A DNA stretch of 33,095 nt from Octopus sinensis. Its lineage: Eukaryota. Position 1 is the stretch's first letter; every line of letters starts with the position of its first letter. A program made the translations under genes and the position numbers. A model generated the notes under the pieces. The model saw nothing but the letters and a program-made list of their open reading frames with translations. It did no database searches and had not been told where the DNA came from. The stretch spans positions 1-33,095 of the forward strand of contig NW_021832095.1 in the NCBI RefSeq assembly GCF_006345805.1, read 5' to 3'. Below, piece after piece: positions 2,236-32,765 of this stretch.

Positions 2236-2546
2236 GGGTATATACATATACTGATATAAACAGCTAGGCGCAATGTGATACCATAAAGAAAAAATGTCAT
2301 TGTCCCTAAATGTCACTAAAGGTGCCGAAGTACCTACATTGCTAGAAATAAGAGTTAAAATGTCCTTAATGCTGTAAGAAGAGCACAAATATATATATGG
2401 CGGACGGAATTAGCCGACCATCAGCCGTCGGAGTAGTTACTATTGACGTTGCCTACGGCGAAAGTAGGCCTGTTTTGTTATCCTTGACAGGGTCACGGGG
2501 TGGTTACCTTCCCTGTCAGTGTATGCCAGTATGTATTATGTATACA

Positions 2547-2776
2547 GCGGCGAGCTGGCAGAAACGTTAGCACGCCGGGCGAAATGTGTAGCCGTATTTC
2601 GTCTGTCGTTACGTTCTGAGTTCAAATTCCGCCGAGGTCGACTTTGCCTTTCATCCTTTCGGGGTCGATAAATTAAGTACCAGTCACGCACTGGGGTCGA
2701 TGTAATCGACTTAATACCTATGTCTGTCCTTGTTTGTCCCCTCTGTCTTTAGCCCCTTGTGGGTAATAAAGAAATA
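2547..2776 (+). mobile_element. Full-length tRNA-derived SINE family A with Tx1-like tail (tail 1), 17-bp TSD
   Basis: A-box-like TGGCAGAAACGTT, B-box GAGTTCAAATTCC, conserved core, tail ending GCCCCTTGTGGGTAATAAAGAAATA. Exact direct repeat AGTATGTATTATGTATA at 2528-2544 and 2777-2793. Confidence 0.92.
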
Positions 2777-3972
2777 AGTATGTATTATGTATATATGTAT
2801 GTGTGTGTGTATGTATGTATGTATGTATGTATGTATGTATGTATGAGTGTGTGTGTGTCAGCATTTGACACTATTTCTTCGGGCGTAGATCCATGGTCTC
2901 TCGAGACCGAAGGATGCCAACATGCGTACTACTACATAAGAATACACATATATGCACATATATGTGTATGTGTGTGTGCGTGCGTGTGGTGTGTGTGTGT
3001 GTATTTATGTATGCATGGATGAGCGGATGTGTATGGTCGAATTCACAGCTATAAGAGTGTCTGAGAGAACGCCTTGCAGTATTTTTCTAACTCAATGTTT
3101 TCTGAGTTCAAATTCCGTCTCGATCTACTTTCTTTTTCATTCTTTTAAGTTAAATAGAGTAACAATCCCGCGGTATGAAGACTGACAGTTAAAACACTGA
3201 ACTATACAGAAACCAATACGTGTGTGAATATATCTCTGTGTGTGCGCGCACGCGTATATGGTGTGTGTGTATGCACAAATATACATATACGCATATTATA
3301 TGTTTCATATACAAGCTAAATACGAAATAACTTGACACACTTTCTCTAAGCATAAAAAGCAGAATGTGTATCTAAGTGTTTATGTATGTGTATGTACCAG
3401 TATCATATGTTTGTGAATAACTGTAGTGGTGAACTAGGACCTAAATCACCTCCCTACTTAAGGTTTCGTAAAGCTAGCTGCATACAGACTTGACTGCAAT
3501 CTTAATTAACAAATACTTACTGAAGTGTTCTGTGACATACGGATAATGGAAGTTATTATGAAACATAAGATTTAGGTTTGAAGGACGAATTCCCGCCACC
3601 ACAAAACGCATTCACACATACAGATATACTTTCTCTTGACTCAGTGAGGGTCGCTATACTGGGTCTTTCGAGATACTAGAAATGGCAGCCAAGTTTCCTA
3701 GCCTACTTTATATCATAATTCCCTTAAAAACTGGAAATGATTTGACTCCTCTTGTCCTCAGTTAAAACAATTATTATTCACTCTGTGAAGATTATACTGC
3801 AAGATGCCTGCTGGATGTACATACTTTGAATTGGCGAAGTGCTCCTATTATAACTGAGTGAAGTATAACCAATCTTCCTTCGGTTATTCGAACCCTATGC
3901 TAGCATAGGTTCCTGCATGAAGTACTGACGAGGTCATCGCCTGAATTATACTTATCCTTTCAATTATTATAC

Positions 3973-6130: not shown

Positions 6131-7239
6131 CTATCAGATTTACTATCTTAATACACGTCTCACTGCAGCTCGTCTCGACCGAGGAGCAATACTGTGTCAA
6201 GCGTGGAGCGAGATTGCACGTCTGGTATCTAGAATGTTGCTATGCACTTGCGGCTTTGATTCAACTGCACAACGCTGTCAGTGGGAAAACAACCATCTTA
6301 TTCTGTAGCAGATTTAGCAGATTAATGGAGGGTATGAACAACGATGGTCTGGGACCGACTGTGGGCGTTAAGAGCAGTCTCAGCAGTCAATTTTGAGCGA
6401 TTTTCTATTCAGGGGCTATGGACATCTTCCAAATATCCTTTACATTACAGTGTTATAAGGAAGAGGCTTTAACTGTTCGAGACAAGCTCTGCAAGCAGGG
6501 TAGTACCAACAGCTGAACCGACTCGGGTTGATCTTCATGTTGTTGTTTGACGCCTTTGATGCTCAATCATTGCCAACTTTTGGGTTTGTGTCGAATAACT
6601 GTTGCCGCATGTAGCATGCAGTTAACTATAAGATGATTTTATAGTGAAGATCGGTGCGCCACATTCTCTTGTAGGAAAGGGCAGCTAGTTTTTCTCTGCC
6701 GAGTGCCTATGACAAGAGGAGTAGTATAGTGGACTCGTCTAAAATGTTTGAAGATAGAAGTAGATAAGTCTGTTGCCCAGCTCACATCAACTTGAAGAGA
6801 AAGATGAAGAAATACAAGGAGATTCTGCCTTCTACTTAACGAAATACGGCTAGGAACAGCAACACTGGTGGGGTTGAATGGCGATTCTAAAGTGGCTTTT
6901 CTAAATAGGAATGAAGATTCCGAGAGAGGGCCCACTTGACGCCATAGACATGACAGAGTAATCTGAGTCTTTGTGTGAAGTTTCCTCCGAATTATCCTTG
7001 ATTGTCTTTTCTCCCGGTTGGGGAAGTTTCCATACATGTTATCATATTTATTCTTGTTTATTTTACTTTTTGTAACGTGATTTTTTTATGAACAAATACT
7101 AAAGTGTTCTGTAACAAGCGTATAATAGAATCTATTATGAAACATAATGGCTCGATGCAAACGACATTTATGTGTGTTTGTATTTCGTCCCTGTATGTAC
7201 TCAACGTTCTGAGACGTTGGGGACAAGATCAATTATTTC

Positions 7240-7363
7240 AGAATCGTTAGCACGCCGGACAAAATACTTAGCGGCATTTCATTCGCCTTTATGTTCTGAG
7301 TTCAAATTCGACTGAGGTCAACTTTGCTTTTCATCTTTTCGCGGTCGATGAAATAAATACCAG
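7240..7363 (+). mobile_element. SINE family A (head + core)
   Basis: CAGAATCGTTAGCACGCCGG...GAGTTCAAATTC...GTCAACTTTGCTTTTCATC. Confidence 0.85.
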
Positions 7364-8490
7364 TTTTAACATCCGGTCATCAGAGTTTTTCAGGTAGGTG
7401 TTTAGGCCAATTGTGACAATCTTCGTTGTTAATTCCAGTTGTAAAAATCCACAGACACCCTCTTTTCTTGGCAGGTAGAGTCGTTATTAGCCTTCTTTGG
7501 GTATTTGCCATTGAGAAGTTTTTCTTGCCATTTATCAGTAAGAAAATCTATGGCAACTGTTTTAGCGCGGGTTTTCATATGCTTAGCTTTTTTCTGTGAT
7601 TGTGTCCTGAACATATAATTGTGTGACACGTTGTATTTGGAATTCACTCAGATAATTCTTTGCCTGTTTTGTTTATGAGTATGGTGTTTTCTTGTTTTCA
7701 TGTCTTAAGACAAGTTTTAACATCCAGTCATCAGAGATTTTCAAGTAGATATTTAGGTCAATTGTGGCAATCTTCATTGTTAATTCCAGTTGTAAAAGTC
7801 CACGACACCTTATTTTCTTGGCAGATAAATTCGTTCTATATTTGCCTTAGGGTAGTGCATTCCTTGCACTGTCAACAATTTTCGTATTTTTCTGTCAAGA
7901 TTACATATTTCAGTGATTGACCAGTTAATAATATTGAGACTAAGTCACAACCGGTATGGCTAAAGTACTGATCGCTTCTATCCTGTTTCTTGCATTCTGC
8001 TCTGTCTTGCCCTTACACTGCGATATTCTTTTCTGATCTTTTCCCTCGTCATTGAGTGTTTGATTCTATCACCATCAAATACCCCTAGGTATTTGTAGTT
8101 CTCCACTGGTTATAACTCCTTTATAGCATTCTGTTGGTCAAAATTAACGTTGCATGTTTCTATCATTTTTCCTCTGATAAAGGTAGCTTTTGCACATTTA
8201 TCGAGGCCAAATTCCATCCTGATGTCATTACTGAATTCTTTAACGATTGCTAGTTGTTGGTCATTTTTTTACAAGGAGCTTTAAATCATCCATGTAAAAA
8301 GAGATGATTTATATTTCTATGAAACACTTTATAGCCAAATTGTACATCATCGATCAATTTCAAGAAAGCTTTTAAGGCTAGACAGAAGAAGAGCGGTAAT
8401 AGGTAGTTACCCTGGAAAATGCTACATGAAATTCGTACATCTCCAGCATTGAGAGATTATGACTGTTCAAAGTGAGTATGGTTACACGTC
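7362..8490 (-). pseudogene. R4/Dong-like non-LTR retrotransposon reverse transcriptase fragment (frameshifted)
   Basis: Minus-strand translation across frameshifts: ISCSIFQGNYLLPLFFCLAL, INHLF/YMDDLKL, FSNDIRMEFGLDKCAKA, YKYLGV, NLDRKIRKLLT, MHYPKA..ERIYLPRK, KWQEKLLNGKYP. These match RT domains 4-7 and the thumb of RLE-type (R4 clade) elements. Confidence 0.88.
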
Positions 8491-9897: not shown

Positions 9898-9973
<76 letters not shown>

Positions 9974-10465
9974 GTAAGTAGGTAGGTAGTTAGGTAGGTA
10001 AGTAGGTAGGTAGGTAGGTAGGTAGGTAGACAGGCAGGTAGACAGGCAGGTAGACAGGCAGGTAGGCAGGCAGGTAGACAGGTAGATAGACAGGCAGGTA
10101 GGCAGGCAGGCAGACAGGCAGGTAGGTAGGTAAGTAGGCAGGCAGGTAGGTAGTTAGGTATGTAGGTAGTTAGATAGGTAGGTAGGTAGGTAGGTTGGTT
10201 GGTAGGTAGGTAGGTAGGTAGGTAGGTAGGTAGGTAGGTGGTAGGTAGGTAGGTAGACAGGCAGGTAGACAGGCAGGTAGGCAGGCAGGTAGACAGGCAG
10301 GTAGACAGGCAGGTAGGCAGGCAGACAGGCAGGTAGGTAGGTAAGTAGGCAGGCAGGCAGGTAGGTAGTTAGGTATGTAGGTAGTTAGATAGGTAGGTAG
10401 GTAGGTTGGTAGGTAGGTAGGTAGATAGATAGGTAGGTAGGTAGGTAGGTAGGTAGATAATAGAT
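9897..10465. repeat. Compound (GATA)n-(GGTA)n-(GGCA/GACA)n tetranucleotide array
   Basis: Directly visible, with an internal duplication of about 210-bp period. Confidence 0.95.
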
Positions 10466-17020: not shown

Positions 17021-17796
17021 GCATGCACACCCACGCACACACATACACACTCATATATATAATACTTATATATACATAAATTTTTATAAACATATGTATT
17101 TTACATACATATATACACACATACATGTGTGCATACATATGTTTTATGTGCATATATGCGTGTATGTGTATATATTTGCATCTCTTTACAAATACATACA
17201 CGCTGAGTTGATGTGTATTTGTGTATTCACGTCAGTATATATTGATGTTTCATTTTTTTGACCAGAATTAAGCTCCTTTTTCAATGAGTTATATAACCTG
17301 AATGCTTTAAAATGATAATAAGTGAAATGTTTCATTTGTGTTGAATTTATCGCTATAATAATAAACTATTTTCCGAGTGAATAGTATTGAATACATTTCG
17401 AGAATACTGTTGCCATTAACGCTTTGTTACATTCTATCAATTCTGAATAGAAATTTGAGGTGAGTCACGAGAGCACTTGAATGACTGTTCTGTATCAAAC
17501 ACGACGTTGATATCTTGTTGATCTACATTTTGTATTTGAAAATATTTGTGACGTAAAAGAAGTCACATGAACATTGCACAGTAAATTAATAACCAGAAGG
17601 AAAGAATAGTATCTTCTAAACAAATGAGTAAATATAGTCTGGTGTCTAACGCTTACAAATGAAATTAGAGACTGTTAGTATGGCTGAAATGTGGACAACT
17701 TTCTTAATTGTCTAAATATATTGTTGGTGATTCTCCACAGGTGTCATTTGTCATATATATCATAATCATCATCATCATCATCATCATTGGTAAAAC

Positions 17797-18026
17797 GGCG
17801 AGCTGGCAGAAACGTTAGCACGCCGGGCGAAATGCTAAGCAGTATTATATCGTCTGCCGCTACGTTCTGAATTCAAATTCCGCCGAGGTCGACTTTGCCT
17901 TTCATCCTTTCGGGGTCGATAAATTAAGTACCAGTTACGCACTGGGTCGATGTAATCGACTTAATCCGTTTATCTGTCCTTGTTTGTCCCCTCTATGTTC
18001 AGCCCCTTGTGGGTAGTAAAGAAATA
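17797..18026 (+). mobile_element. SINE family A with tail 1 (Tx1-like)
   Basis: Very similar to 2547-2776; ends GCCCCTTGTGGGTAGTAAAGAAATA. Confidence 0.92.
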
Positions 18027-18160
18027 GGTATTTCGTCCGTCGCTACGTTCTGAGTTCAAATTCCACCGAGGTGGACTTCGCCTTTCATCCTTTTGGGGTC
18101 GATGTAATCAACTAGTCCTCTCACCCCAATTCTCAGGCCTTGTACCTTTAGTAGAAAGGA
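18027..18160 (+). mobile_element. Headless SINE family A with tail 2
   Basis: Starts at GGTATTTCGTC; core has a deletion between the two GGGGTCGAT repeats; tail CAGGCCTTGTACCTTTAGTAGAAAGG followed by (TAT)n. Confidence 0.85.
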
Positions 18161-18618: not shown

Positions 18619-19148
18619 GAGTGAGAGAGCAGTGCATGCTATCAAAGTGACACTAGGTAAAATATACGAAGCCCAGTATACCCATTATGACTACCCGTCT
18701 GATAAGGGTACACCAGGCACATACATCACAACCATATGTGCGCGACACGGTAATCTCATATCAAGATAAACAACACATGACCTTGCAGGTGGGGCCCAGT
18801 TAGAATTTTCTTCAGGTCGAGTAGCCCATCCCGCTCAAAAGCTCCCTGAATAAGGGTCGTTTAAAGTTTTGAACGAAACACCCATGTTTCCAGAGAATTC
18901 CTCTCAACACATGACTATGATGCTCCCCCACTACTTTTGTTCGTGATCAGAGATACACATATCGCCAGCCACTAAGGGACATGCTCAACTGGTTAAGGTC
19001 AAACAACCGACAAGCAAATCTGTGGTATTGAGCAAAATATTTGTTGTAGCCCATCTTTTATACCAATGCAAAACAATGTACATGATAACACTTCCTATCA
19101 GTTAAGATCAGAAGCCTTGAGAGCCACTGCCTGGTACTGCATCAGGGT
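18619..19148. mobile_element. About 530-bp non-coding insertion precisely bounded by (TAT)n tracts
   Basis: Sharp boundaries with in-phase (TAT)n on both sides; no ORF, TIRs or clear tRNA head. Probably a non-autonomous retroelement. Confidence 0.6.
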
Positions 19149-19177
19149 ATTATTATTATTATTATCATTATTATTAT

Positions 19178-19840
19178 AGTTGTATGAAAACTCACAGTTC
19201 ATTTTGCTGGGTATGATGGAAAGTATCAGCGGTCCACAGCCAGCAGAGTAAGGTGACACTTGTTTACTGGTCATACTTCAAGAACTCTGCGAAGAATTCT
19301 TGCAGTTCTAGGCAATGCTGATTTTTGTAGAAGTTCTACCTTCACACTTGCACCCATCTTTTTCAGCCATGCTGGTAGTTGAGTGCTGATACTTCCAAAT
19401 GCACCAATTACTATTGGTATCATTAACTCTCTTCATTAACCACAACTTTCGTATTTCCCACTTTAAATCGTCGTAGTTGTTTATTTTTTCTTCTTTCACA
19501 TTGGTCCTGTTGTCATCGGGGCATGCTATGTCGATAATCACATATTCTTTTTTATTCACCACAACAATGTCAAGTTTCCTATGTTTGGTCTGGATCATTA
19601 CATCCCACGGGATTTTATTTTCGGTGACTCCTTCTGCGGTTTTCTCATACCACGTCTTTGCTCTTTGTGGGATGTGATTCCCACAGAGCTCCCAATGGAT
19701 CATTTTTGCCACATTGTCATGGCGCCGTTTGTATTCGCGTTGTGCCAATTTCGAGCATTCGTTAATGATGTGCCATACCGTTTCACCCCTCTCACCGCAC
19801 ATTCTCCATTTGTCGCTATCGGTAGTATTATCAATTTTGT
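19178..19840 (-). mobile_element. Dong/R4-like LINE 3' fragment (zinc knuckle + RLE endonuclease + 3' UTR)
   Basis: RMCGERGETVWHIINEC, YKRRHDNVAKMIHWELC, WD..IQT.HR.LDIVVV...IIDIACP.D...KEEK, IPIVIGAFG, QKSALPRTARILRRVLEV*; the 3' end runs into (TAA)n. Confidence 0.92.
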
Positions 19841-19876
19841 GTGTGCGTTTGTACTTGTGAGCGTGTGTAAATATTA

Positions 19877-19960
19877 GGGTCGATTTGTTAGATTAAACCC
19901 TTCAAGACGGTGCCCCAGCATGGCCGTAGTCCAATAACTGAAACAAGCAAAAAATAAAAG
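19877..19960 (+). mobile_element. SINE family B 3' tail
   Basis: CGGTGCCCCAGCATGGCCGTAGTCCAATAACTGAAACAAGCAAAA matches the tail of the 10805 copy. Confidence 0.75.
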
Positions 19961-27146: not shown

Positions 27147-27208
27147 ACCTCACACTTTCGACGTATGCAAATGAAGCTATGATGTTCATTTCATCCTCCA
27201 TTGGTATT

Positions 27209-27401
27209 GGTTTCAAATTTTGGAACAAGGCCAGCAAGTTCGGGGACAAGGATAAGTCAATTACCTTGATCCCGGTACTCATCTGGTACATATTTTATCG
27301 ACACCGAAAGAGATGAAACGCAAAGTCGATCTCGACGGAATTTGAACTCAGAACATAAGGGACGGACGAAATGCCACTGAGCTATCTGCCAGCTCGCCGC
27401 T
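27209..27401 (-). mobile_element. SINE family A with tail 3, aged 20-bp TSD
   Basis: Head (internally deleted), core, tail GGCCTTGTTCCAAAATTTGAAACC. Flanks TTTCATCCTCCATTGGTATT (27189-27208) and TTTCATCCTTCAATGATATT (27402-27421) are 17/20 identical. Confidence 0.85.
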
Positions 27402-28391: not shown

Positions 28392-28607
28392 ATAATCCTT
28401 TCTACTATAGGCACAAGGCCTGAAAGTTTAGGGAGGGGTCTAGTCGATTACATCAACCCCAGTGTTTCACTGGTACTTAATGTATCGACCCTGAAAGGAT
28501 GAAAGACAAAGTTGATCTCTGTAGAATTTGAACTCAGAGCGTAGCGGCAGACGAAAAACCACTAAGCATTTTACCTGGGGTGCTAACGATTCTGCCAGCT
28601 CACCACC
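28392..28607 (-). mobile_element. Full-length SINE family A with tail 2
   Basis: Head, core and tail CAGGCCTTGTGCCTATAGTAGAAAGGATTAT on the minus strand. Confidence 0.88.
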
Positions 28608-28719: not shown

Positions 28720-28776
<57 letters not shown>

Positions 28777-28780
28777 GATT

Positions 28781-28987
28781 GCGAGCTGAAAGAATCGTTA
28801 GCACACTGGACGACATGCTTAGCGGCATTTTGTCCGTCTTTACATTCTGAATTCGAATTCCGTAGAGGTCGACTTTGCCTGTCATCATTTCGAGGTCGAT
28901 AAATTAAGTACCAGTGAAACACTAGGATCGATGTAATCTATTTAGGCCCGACACCCAAAATTACTAGCCTTGTGCCAAAATTTGAAA
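28781..28987 (+). mobile_element. SINE family A with tail 3 followed by long (ATT)n
   Basis: Head, core, tail AGCCTTGTGCCAAAATTTGAAA. Confidence 0.88.
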
Positions 28988-28988
28988 A

Positions 28989-29042
<54 letters not shown>

Positions 29043-29084
29043 TATTATTATTACTATTATTATTATTACTATTATTATTATTAC

Positions 29085-29147
<63 letters not shown>

Positions 29148-29152
29148 TACTA

Positions 29153-29204
<52 letters not shown>

Positions 29205-29425
29205 CATAATTATCATCATCATCATCATCATCATCATCATTATTATTATTATTATTATTAACCTTGTTGCTATTGTTATTGTTGTTTTTGTTGTTGTTGT
29301 TGTTGTTGTCATTGCTCTTGTTGTTGTTGTTGTTGGTCTTAGTGTTGTTTCTATTGTCGTTAGCGTTCATACAGTTTGCTGTCGTCCTTGATGCTGCTAC
29401 TGCTGCTGCTGCTGTTGTTGTTGTT
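28988..29425. repeat. (TAT)n-(CAT)n-(TGT)n-(TGC)n trinucleotide array
   Basis: Directly visible. Confidence 0.92.
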
Positions 29426-29802: not shown

Positions 29803-29932
29803 GAGATAGATAGACAGATAGATAGATCGATAGATAGAGACAGACAGACAGACAGACAGCAGAGAGAAAGACAGATAGACAACAGATGATAGATAGATAG
29901 ATAATAGATGGATAGATAGATAGATAGATAGA

Positions 29933-29964
<32 letters not shown>

Positions 29965-30131
29965 GGAGATAATAGATAGATAGATAGATATATGATAGAT
30001 AGATAGATGATAGATAGATAGATAGATAGATAGATGCTAGATAGATAGATAGATAGATAGGTAGAATAGATAGATAGATAGGTTGATAGACAGACAGACA
30101 GACAGATAGAGATAGATAGATAATAACAGCC

Positions 30132-30173
<42 letters not shown>

Positions 30174-30182
30174 CAGACAGAC

Positions 30183-30239
<57 letters not shown>

Positions 30240-30240
30240 C

Positions 30241-30272
<32 letters not shown>

Positions 30273-30322
30273 GCATACATACATACAGACAGACAGAGAG
30301 ACAGACAGACAGACAGATAGAT
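29803..30322. repeat. (GATA)n/(GACA)n array
   Basis: Directly visible. Confidence 0.95.
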
Positions 30323-32260
30323 AAGTTTCTTTATTGGCCACACAGGGCTGCACACAGATGGGACACATTACAAGGTAGAGCTTTTCTTTTGGGGGATGAA
30401 AAAAAAATGGTGGCGTAGGTTTCCGATCAAAAGGGATCGTAAAAGGGAAAAAAGAAAGAAAGAAAAAAAAGGAAAAGAATCAAAAGAAAAGAAAAAAGAA
30501 AAAAGAAGAAAAAGGAGGAAAAAAGGGGAAGATGTAAAAAAACGATCAATAGGGAACCTTGTATCACAGTGTCATGATGTACGGTGTAAAGGGGGAAGCA
30601 GATAAGGTTTATCCGTGGGAAGAAAAGCCTACGAAAAAGACCACGGTAACCTCGGTCAATATTGTTATATGTTACCACATTTGTTTGCAAGTGGGTAACC
30701 CTCTGTTTTCAATTTCTGGGTTCATAGGATTATGCTCAAGGTGGCTTCGTCATTCATACGTGCCATCCTTGCTACATTCAACCATTTTTTTTTTAAACAT
30801 TCGCTAGACAAAACTTGCCTCTCTACTCTCACTTTCCTTTGAAGAAGTTGAGAGATTAACCAGAGAGGAAAGTGTTTGTCTCCAATCCTTTCAGATGCGT
30901 CCACCAGATACATTCTTTCGCCATAGCCACAAGGATGATGAAAATAGCTCTTCCTTCCCGTTTGAAGGAAGGAGGCGTGACAATATTGACGATAGACTCA
31001 GCTGATAAACCGACTCGTCCCACACGTGACAGCAGTTGTTCGGCATAAGCCCACAGGTCGGAAATTGTTGGACACTGCACGAGTGCGTGCAGAACGGTTT
31101 CGTCGCTCTGACCGCATCTCGGGCAGGTCGGCCCCGTGTTTCTCGAGCCGTGTCTGTAGAGCTTATCCCGAACGGGTAGCGCTTCTCGGTAGCCTTGCCA
31201 GACCAGGGATCTCTGGAAGTTGTCCATGGGCCCTGGCCCGAAAGTCGTCCCGAACAGGCAGGTCAGGTATTCCTCGTCGACGTCCAGGTTCGCCCCGAGC
31301 TCGTCGTCGTACCTCCCCTCCACTAATCCCCTATAGAATGCTTGGGTTGTGATGGAGTCACTCAGGGTCGACCCGGGACGGCAGAGTTGCTTGAGAGCAA
31401 CGTGACACTCGCGGTGCCATTCGCCCTTCCTCGGCCTCTTTTTGATCCACGACTGCACTTCGGTCATAGAGACTAGCTGCGGGAAAGCGTGCCTCACAAA
31501 CAGCAACCACACCTGTTCACCGTCGTCTACGAAGAGCCTGAGATGTCGCAGTCTCAGAGCGTGTCTGCGCATTATCAACCACGGCATGCCCAGTCCTCCT
31601 TTTAACGGGTGTTGACAGCAAATGGATCGCCTGACCATCGGGACGCATCCTTTCCACAAGAAGCGAAAGAGAATGCGTTCTAGTTGGGTGATGGTAGGGT
31701 CGGGACAAGGCACGACAGTCAGGCGGTAGTAGATGACGGACGCGATGTACGTGTTCGCCACCTCCGCCGGACCTTTTAGGGACAGTTTCCTCTCGGCCCA
31801 TTGCCGGGCGAGAGTGACCACCCTTCTCGTTATCTCGTTCCAGTTCTTCTCCATTTGGAGGTCCGGACCGAACCAGACCCCAAGCAACTCGACCGGACCG
31901 TCGGTCCAGCGTCCCACGACGAAGTCGCTGGTGGACGGCATGAGCTTGTTTCTCCAGGTGCCTAGTCGCAAGCCCACTGACTTTTCCCGGTTGATTTTCG
32001 CTCCTGTCACCGCTTCGTAGTTTTTCAGTGTCTCACCGACCTTCTCGATGTGCTCGTGGCTAGACACTATGACGGTGATGTCGTCCGCGTATGCAGACAC
32101 GCTCGTCCCGCATCCCAGTTCTCGCGGGATGCCCCTCAGAGTTGCCAGCTTCCGCAATAATGGCTCGAGATTCAATACGTATAGAAGCGAACGTGCGATG
32201 TCGAAAGGTCTCGACAGATGTCCATTTACGCGAATTACCGAACGGGTGCCTCTGTACAAA
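30323..32260 (-). mobile_element. 5'-truncated Tx1/L1-clade non-LTR retrotransposon
   Basis: ORF2 C-terminal half plus a pyrimidine-rich 3' UTR ending GCCCTGTGTGGCCAATAAAGAAACT; bounded by (GATA/GACA)n and (GGTA)n. Confidence 0.93.
30722..32259 (-). pseudogene. Tx1/L1-type ORF2 remnant (RT domains 4-7, thumb, zinc knuckle)
   Basis: LLYVLNLEPLL, SAYADDITV (YADD at 32080-32091), YEAVTGAKINREKS, LLGVWFG, LSLKG, GGLGMP, CPRCGQSDETVLHALVQC. Stop/frameshift near 30856, after which ERQVLS..KKW continues to 30722. The QG motif is missing. Confidence 0.92.
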
Positions 32261-32324
32261 GGTAGGTGGTAGGTAGGTAGGTAGGTAGGTAGGTAGGTAG
32301 GTAGGTAGGTAGGTAGGTAGGTAG
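32261..32324. repeat. (GGTA)n microsatellite
   Basis: Directly visible. Confidence 0.95.
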
Positions 32325-32765
32325 GGAAAACATAAACATAACCGAGAGTTGGTAAAACTTAAAGATTGATTGGAACAAAAAAATAACATTGAAAGTGAAA
32401 GGAGAGGGAAAGGAAGGAAATAATGAAAAAATATTGGGAGAAAATAGGGGATTGAAGGAAGAAATGAGTAGAATAAGGAAAATGAGTAAAAGAAGGAAGA
32501 ATGGAAAATTAGAATGAAGAAAATAATAAATGACAATTACATTGGTGTTCCCGTTGCTTTCCTCTGTATCTGTCTAGCTAATTCTCTAAATATTTATCTA
32601 TCTACCTATCTTCTGTCTCTGTCTGTCTGTCTGTGTGCGTGCGTGCGTGTGCACGTTTGGTCTTTCAAGTTTTTCTCATTTTATTGTAATTCATTAATTC
32701 CATAAATCGCTTCATGATTCATGGGCTTTTGTTAGAAAGAAGAAGAAAAGAAGAACAACAACAAG

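Follow-up and report, generated by a model that had tools for sequence, protein, structure and literature searches.

A 33,095-nucleotide stretch of the Octopus sinensis genome (contig NW_021832095.1 of assembly GCF_006345805.1, positions 1 to 33,095; hereafter the window) carries on its minus strand, at 32259-30325, a 1935-bp (1.94-kb) fragment of a retrotransposon without long terminal repeats (non-LTR type) lying between two tetranucleotide microsatellites. A first-pass annotation of the window had assigned this fragment to the Tx1 clade and proposed for it a specificity for (GATA/GACA/GGTA)n repeats. By examining the damage of the copy, its relatives, its flanks and the other repeats of the window, we arrive at a different reading: the element is a dead copy of Tx1 type, which likely has a short interspersed element (SINE) as partner through a shared 3' tail, and which stands about an even chance of having landed by a loose preference for tetranucleotide repeats and not by a strict one for GATA/GACA/GGTA. 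The tail common to this long interspersed element (LINE) and the SINE, with a 17-bp target-site duplication (TSD) at one SINE copy, is a well-supported addition to the annotation; the specificity itself is unproven.

Structure, relationships and decay of the element

The copy (30325..32259, minus strand, as are all of its parts) is truncated at its 5' end and lacks open reading frame 1 (ORF1), the endonuclease and the first half of the reverse transcriptase (RT), such that its alignment to the full-length relative P0136 begins at residue 619 of 1155. The remnant of ORF2 is a stop-free run of 467 codons (30859..32259) that encodes the C-terminal half of the RT (RVT_1, E 8.9e-7), including the catalytic motif YADD (32080..32091), and a zinc-binding domain (zf-RVT, E 1.5e-7) with a CCHC zinc knuckle (31072..31125); a non-LTR RT followed by a C-terminal CCHC knuckle is the order expected of the L1 group. 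The pyrimidine-rich 3' untranslated region (UTR) of ~400 nt (30325..30721) ends in AATAAAGAAAC (30335-30325), which abuts TTATCTATCTGTCTGTC directly and without poly(A). Both ends had thus been described correctly from the start, the 3' end as joining tetranucleotide repeats with no poly(A) and the cut 5' end, at 32259, as adjoining (TACC)n.

The identification as a Tx1-type member of the L1 group likewise holds, on the RT and zf-RVT matches of the copy and on the anatomy of its kin. The best named match is the Argonauta hians protein P0003 (60% identity over the whole query), and in a quick tree of 47 rows, which were hand-picked from 210 proteins plus loci and include no named Tx1 family, the element and P0003 fall in a 7-row clade (SH-aLRT 100) that is sister (99) to full-length elements combining an apurinic/apyrimidinic endonuclease (APE) with the RT. 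Members of this sister clade have an ORF1 with a CCHC motif and an ORF2 of APE, RT and zinc domain; an N-terminal APE is present there and was found neither in the truncated copy nor in its closest relative, P0121. All three sister-clade ORF1s searched carry zf-CCHC and match no L1 ORF1 family, the element's own ORF1 not having been recovered. An ORF1 with a CCHC knuckle, and not of the mammalian L1 type, is a feature of the Tx1 clade. Among solved structures the ORF2 of the full-length sister protein P0123 is nearer to L1 than to R2 (human L1 ORF2p, the best match, E 1e-72; R2, E 6e-29). The endonuclease loop of the sister element L011 aligns without gaps to that of PDB entry 2v0r, which we take to carry the Tx1L loop, and has two extra residues relative to L1; the corresponding part of the element is missing. 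Judged from these sequences, the sister clade appears Tx1-like, and none of the named Tx1 families (Tx1L, Keno, Kibi, Koshi, Mutsu) occurred among the best 120 of 640 matches of a profile search.

The Octopus bimaculoides gene model P0198 holds a 78%-identical piece of the element family; P0198 is a RhoGEF10-like model whose first ~45 residues derive from this family, probably as a mis-joined or exonised fragment. A self-search of the window returned no further copy of the family, only an older relic described below; close-relative alignment against genome contigs yielded no relative, and the plasmid and phage collections no match. In the Atlas the protein relatives fell into generic RT clusters only. 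Protein calls reading across the 3' junction of the element gave one low-complexity match, which was not used.

The copy itself is dead. An in-frame loss of nine residues, with its junction at 32187..32188, ~70 bp from the 5' end, removes the QGCPLS motif of the RT, which is kept in 7/7 aligned relatives that span the site. (A tally of the QG.PL motif over all matches, 103/144, was set aside, as distant relatives carry variants.) The C-terminus is broken at 30722..30858, where a premature stop (30858-30856) precedes 40 frameshifted codons (30844-30725) and the natural stop (30724-30722). The 467-codon frame that had been taken as a sign of fairly recent activity is therefore real in extent (30859-32259) but not intact, given the nine-residue loss, the stop and the frameshift; with a core RT motif and the C-terminus gone it does not indicate competence, though its divergence probably amounts to no more than a few percent and the copy is fairly young. 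In a leave-one-out test the element deviates at 11 of the 166 columns that five or more relatives hold invariant; for the non-Argonauta relatives, seven in number, the count is 0-6 of 98-162 columns, and for the two Argonauta relatives it is 14/123 and 19/175. Under neutral decay this corresponds to ~3% divergence, an upper-end estimate in which family differences are included, and about two stops would be expected, against one seen. The youth of the copy says nothing on the present activity of its family. CpG decay was considered as the chief source of damage and rejected: changes of CpG type account for 2/11 of the conserved-site changes, and the observed/expected CpG ratio of the ORF is 1.07.

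A 3' tail shared with a SINE

The SINE is a ~230-bp repeat dispersed in the window as at least 11 fragments, two of which, A1 and A2, lie 12-27 kb from the element and bear its terminal sequence. Copy A1 (2545..2776, plus strand) comprises a tRNA-like head, the shared body and a tail matching the element's 3' end, and copy A2 (17795..18026, plus strand) carries the same tail. Compared with either one, the final 50 nt of the element (30325..30375, minus strand) are identical in 39/50 columns, the matching stretch lying at the extreme 3' end of each partner; homology placed in this way, at the 3' terminus of LINE and SINE alike, is what marks a SINE-LINE pair. None of 5000 dinucleotide shuffles reached the score of this shared tail (42), the best other position in the window scoring 21 and the best elsewhere in the element 19. 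Copy A1 borders on a (TATG)n array and is enclosed by an exact TSD of 17 bp. The left copy of the TSD occupies 2528..2544, and the right copy (2777-2793) runs into the array, right copy and array together spanning 2777..2845 (all plus strand). Copy A2 is without a TSD, and a 5'-truncated SINE of another tail type begins immediately after it. Motifs resembling the A and B boxes are visible by eye in the SINE head, which gave no tRNA match in Rfam; the SINE may resemble those with Deu or Nin domains and the octopus SINEs described in 1994.

On this sequence comparison it is likely that the LINE family to which the element belongs mobilised the A-tail SINE. Telling against so direct a partnership are the identity of the tail, only 78% between SINE and element, and the weakness of the hairpin that it can form (-4.5 kcal/mol, with 0/11 pairs compensatory among three sequences); judged by sequence, the true LINE partner may perhaps be a sibling family. 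Copy A2 perhaps arose as a chimera by template switching and would then carry no information on the point; otherwise it counts as a plain negative.

A second tail type, B, is found on SINE copies at 18028-18160, 28392-28604, 28776-28990 and 27208-27382. In 3/3 copies tested the best match of the B tail to the 6.4-kb unit of the sister clade (see below) lies at the 3' end of the unit. The B tails thus resemble the end of the sister 3' UTR: the best match, of 32 nt, is reached by 0/1000 shuffles, the count rises to 963/1000 for the worst of four copies, and one of the four is for the most part not significant. An origin of the A-type tail from the sister clade was also considered and rejected, as 65-763 of 1000 shuffles reach its score against the sister 3' end; having no match there, the A-type tail is specific to the element's clade. 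Two of the SINE copies, at 28399-28604 (minus strand) and 28776-28990 (plus strand), are inverted, head-to-head and ~170 bp apart. Within 28722-29260 a SINE copy has (TTA)n on both sides and so cleaner same-unit flanks than the element.

Flanking microsatellites and target preference

The 3' flank of the element is a compound (TATC)n/(TGTC)n microsatellite of ~520 bp (29804..30324, minus strand; Tandem Repeats Finder) with 70 TATC, 32 TGTC and one TACC unit, and the 5' flank is a 66-bp (TACC)n microsatellite (32260..32325, minus strand) with 15 TACC and neither TATC nor TGTC. Both flanks are, as had been noted, tetranucleotide arrays on one strand, with T..C units on the strand of the element, but the units differ between the sides. 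The same unit on both sides, as in families of the Kibi/Koshi type, is thus not what the element displays, and a TSD inside the repeat, as expected of a microsatellite-specific Tx1 insertion, is likewise missing: in agreement with the first-pass annotation no TSD could be resolved, the longest string common to both flanks being 5 nt.

How unusual such a setting is was gauged from the window alone, with the element taken out; each range below runs from the figure that leaves aside the locus of the element to the one that counts it. Period-4 repeats on both 40-nt flanks surround 2.2-3.2% of window positions and GATA/GACA/GGTA units 1.3-2.3%, while microsatellites of any kind lie on both flanks of 7.5-8.4% of positions and on one side of 13-14%. 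The arrangement at the element is uncommon, yet it was chosen after the fact. At 9899-10456 the window also holds a compound (TACC/TGCC)n-(TATC)n array that is empty and has its units in the same order as in the element's flanks, which makes a compound target plausible for the element.

A strict specificity for GATA/GACA/GGTA, comparable to that of Kibi and Koshi and of the (TTCC)n/(TTTC)n families in crocodilians, would account for the membership of both flanks in the named class despite its low background of 1.3-2.3%, and could draw on the empty array with the same units and order; moreover, the T..C units of the sense strand resemble the published TC, TTC, TTCC and TTTC targets, names being taken as written (PMC4494074 and PMC3812793; here and below, papers are cited for the portions of text available to us). 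We nevertheless regard it as improbable and as not shown by the window, given that the flank units differ, that the TSD is absent, that 0/2 tail-sharing SINE copies lie in the named units and that 0/44 sister-clade junctions do. That one copy cannot prove specificity was stated in the earlier annotation, and we agree. Nor would a Tx1 family with a tetranucleotide target be a surprise, since insertion into (TTCC)n and (TTTC)n has been described for such families (PMC4494074).

The absence of poly(A) had been offered as a further hint of targeting. The sister-clade elements, which form head-to-tail arrays in the record CAXXMW01, have poly(A) at 0/44 of their 3' ends, none of which adjoins a microsatellite; the 44 are distinct 3' ends matched by pattern, and ends with variant motifs (e.g. 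on contig 4) are not counted. The missing poly(A) is therefore a lineage trait and not a sign of targeting. As evidence on the target of the element family the same junctions are weak, because they are array interiors in another host.

What remains in favour of a preference comes from the tail-bearing insertions. Copy A1 resembles the element in that its 3' flank is of period 4 (background 4.2-5.6%), and such a flank is seen at 0/4 of the B-tail SINE 3' ends. In addition, TAT occurs within four bases after all three tail-bearing insertions, and CC lies just 5' of the presumed nick at the element and at A1, both being leads noticed post hoc. Taken together, these data lend weak independent support to a loose tetranucleotide preference and none to GATA/GACA/GGTA.

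Assigned by judgement, as are the gradings of the alternatives, the even chance given to a loose preference reflects a considerable weight on the other side. Its base consists of one SINE besides the very copy from which the idea arose, and the independent test amounts to 1/2 SINE copies (p 0.08-0.11). At A1 the microsatellite is on one side only and its periodicity stands at the threshold of 0.75 (0.94 past the TSD); A2 adjoins another SINE and not a microsatellite; and no tandem repeat lies near the lineage's older relic (6154-~7050), the ends of which are eroded. The flanks of the element are of different units and so not a single array split by insertion, they share no TSD, and the 5' junction may be secondary, the expected 17-bp TSD being missing. 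Microsatellites were found at 0/44 sister-clade junctions, all of which lie inside arrays of a different host, at ~40% protein identity, and from the element's own clade no endonuclease was recovered.

Many of these points are equally what would be seen if there were no microsatellite preference at all, the target being loose or non-repeat and the present position being due to chance, to survival in neutral repeat-rich DNA or to a later deletion that brought the cut 5' end next to a (TACC)n array nearby. Such an account is eased by the 13-14% of window positions with one-sided and the 7.5-8.4% with two-sided microsatellites, by the differing flank units and missing TSD, by several deletions in the copy (one of them 70 bp from the 5' end) and by the absence of such flanks from the sister junctions (0/44), from A2 and from the relic at 6154. 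We consider it somewhat unlikely, because the 3' flank is of period 4 in 2/3 tail-bearing insertions, where the background is ~5%, B-tail SINE ends giving 0/4, and because target selectivity is common among Tx1 families (PMC4494074).

The differing flanks would also be explained if the 3' array had grown from the element, a TATC-like tail left by reverse transcription at or beside (TACC)n having expanded by slippage; the 3' ends of retroposons are known as a cradle of microsatellites (PMC3812793). This origin seems very improbable. Neither tail-sharing SINE ends in TATC, the TATG-rich flank of A1 is duplicated target DNA, the sister elements bear no repeat tail, and 520 bp of compound repeat is large for a copy a few percent old.

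Under the loose preference that we favour, the insertion could have proceeded as follows. An intact parent with an APE endonuclease would have nicked the purine-rich strand, and target-primed reverse transcription would have started from the RNA's own 3' sequence with no need of poly(A), as established LINE biology suggests for both steps; reverse transcription would then have halted early, or the 5' part would have been lost later. A SINE that acquired the LINE tail could be copied by the same machinery, leaving duplications of ~17 bp. The nick would favour sites followed by TAT-containing tetranucleotide repeats (TATC at the element, TATG at SINE A1), this being the weakest step, and before insertion the target probably resembled the (TACC)n-(TATC)n compound array at 9899-10456. 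A broader scenario, in which a poly(A)-independent Tx1 lineage of octopods reads its own 3' end, prefers TAT-type tetranucleotides and drives the abundant tRNA-like SINEs, a great number of whose copies would mark the target of the enzyme, with the A tail from the element's family and the B tail resembling the array-forming sister clade, is offered as a tentative and, as a whole, unlikely proposition.

Arrays of the sister clade

A second scan of contigs gave 45 loci, of which 38 (L001-L037 and L045, on 17 contigs) come from CAXXMW01, a record titled as an uncultured Arenicella metagenome-assembled genome (MAG). Its arrays consist of head-to-tail units of 6.4-6.8 kb with Tx1-type elements whose ORF1 and ORF2 are intact, at ~39-43% protein identity to the element family, and with 3' UTRs of ~400-750 nt that end in AATAAA without poly(A). 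Like the element, the sister elements are thus poly(A)-free; unlike it, they are full-length, arranged head-to-tail and without microsatellites at their junctions. The array contigs are eukaryote-like DNA within a bacterial reference set. Seven more MAG contigs (L038-L044) carry distant L1-group ORF2s (27-32%), again as eukaryote-like DNA in prokaryotic records.

At three sister junctions, with two independent truncation points, a 17-nt spacer stands ahead of a 5'-truncated unit, from which we infer TSDs of ~17 bp and growth of the arrays by retrotransposition. Array-specific 17-nt spacers occur ahead of full-length and 5'-truncated units alike, and this suggests that the same site was hit by insertion repeatedly. 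Rfam found nothing in nine array loci or in the window, so that no small-RNA gene target is seen at the array junctions, the array ends lying outside the loci. A literature search found no paper on Tx1 arrays of this kind.

Comparison with known systems

Microsatellite-targeting Tx1 families have been described in crocodilians, where Tx1-1_Crp, Tx1-5_Crp, Tx1-6_Crp, Tx1-1_Gav and Tx1-2/3/5/8_AMi insert preferentially into (TTCC)n or (TTTC)n, a preference being accepted when >20% of copies are flanked by the target (Kojima 2015, PMC4494074). They share with the element a Tx1-type LINE at a tetranucleotide microsatellite, but their preference is established over many copies, whereas the octopus case concerns one copy, two units and a host of another phylum. 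Kibi and Koshi of fishes, which target (TC)n and (TTC)n respectively (as cited in PMC4494074 and PMC3812793), have pyrimidine-rich units like those beside the element but a single simple unit as target.

For the SINE, one precedent is SINEU-3, mobilised by Tx1 with a 16-bp TSD, tandem copies that sandwich the TSD, and poly(A) tails (PMC4494074). In the Tx1-Mar/SINEU system, too, a SINE is inferred to be Tx1-mobilised, and the TSD is similar in length to the 17 bp of A1. SINEU, however, ends in poly(A), and a LINE sharing the 3' end of SINEU-1 was not found, while the octopus SINE bears 50 nt of LINE 3' sequence and no poly(A). Tails from L1-group LINEs are known for ZmSINE2 and ZmSINE3 (with LINE1-1_ZM) and for SINEX-3_CR (with L1-1_CR), three cases among 58 pairs, all of them in plants or algae (PMC3747384). 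These resemble the present case in implying that the 3' end is recognised stringently; their hosts are plants and a green alga, and among the SINEs tabulated in the available text of that paper none from an animal carries an L1 or Tx1 tail. SINE-LINE partnerships of bivalves extend over 35-61 bp at 72-95% identity, with CR1, CR1-Zenon, L2 and Nimb as partners (PMC11481361).

In Octopus vulgaris 80 L1-Tx1 families, 13 of them recently active, have been counted, and SINEs make up 11.6% of the genome (PMC13282606); L1-Tx1 families and tRNA-Deu/Core SINEs of octopuses are annotated (PMC13282606, PMC8967140), and it is very likely that the element belongs to one of these families. The available portions of these two papers give neither targets nor SINE partners for the L1-Tx1 families, and those of PMC4758252, PMC4824008, PMC10088271, PMC4640811 and PMC3531059 name no partner for an octopus SINE. 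The literature searched yielded no Tx1 element in GATA-type repeats, no target for an octopus Tx1 family and no animal SINE with a Tx1 tail, a weak absence, as the sequences of Repbase and SINEBase lay outside the coverage of the search. The element itself is a real but ordinary Tx1-type copy, whose specificity, if real, would possibly extend the list of known targets.

By itself, indeed, a true GATA/GACA/GGTA preference would lengthen by one unit the list of microsatellites known as Tx1 targets. More weight attaches to the shared tail, L1-group LINEs being the stated exception among SINE partners (PMC3747384): a Tx1-type LINE of an animal that lacks poly(A) and lends its tail to a SINE would be relevant to the question whether the L1 group had stringent 3' recognition ancestrally. 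It would also name a candidate engine for the expansion of octopus SINEs, and the SINE copies would then form a large sample in which target preference can be tested, beyond the reach of one LINE copy.

Other features of the window

The relic at 6154-7050 (plus strand) is old and heavily decayed and belongs to the Tx1-type lineage of the element (33-40% protein identity); a SINE fragment precedes it. At 19148-19892 (minus strand) lies the 3' fragment of a different LINE, which we take to be Dong/R4-like; a zinc knuckle is visible in it by eye, as is a motif of a restriction-like endonuclease, it ends in (TAA)n, and it gave no Pfam match. A 130-bp direct duplication, 87% identical, occupies 7356-7485 and 7707-7835.

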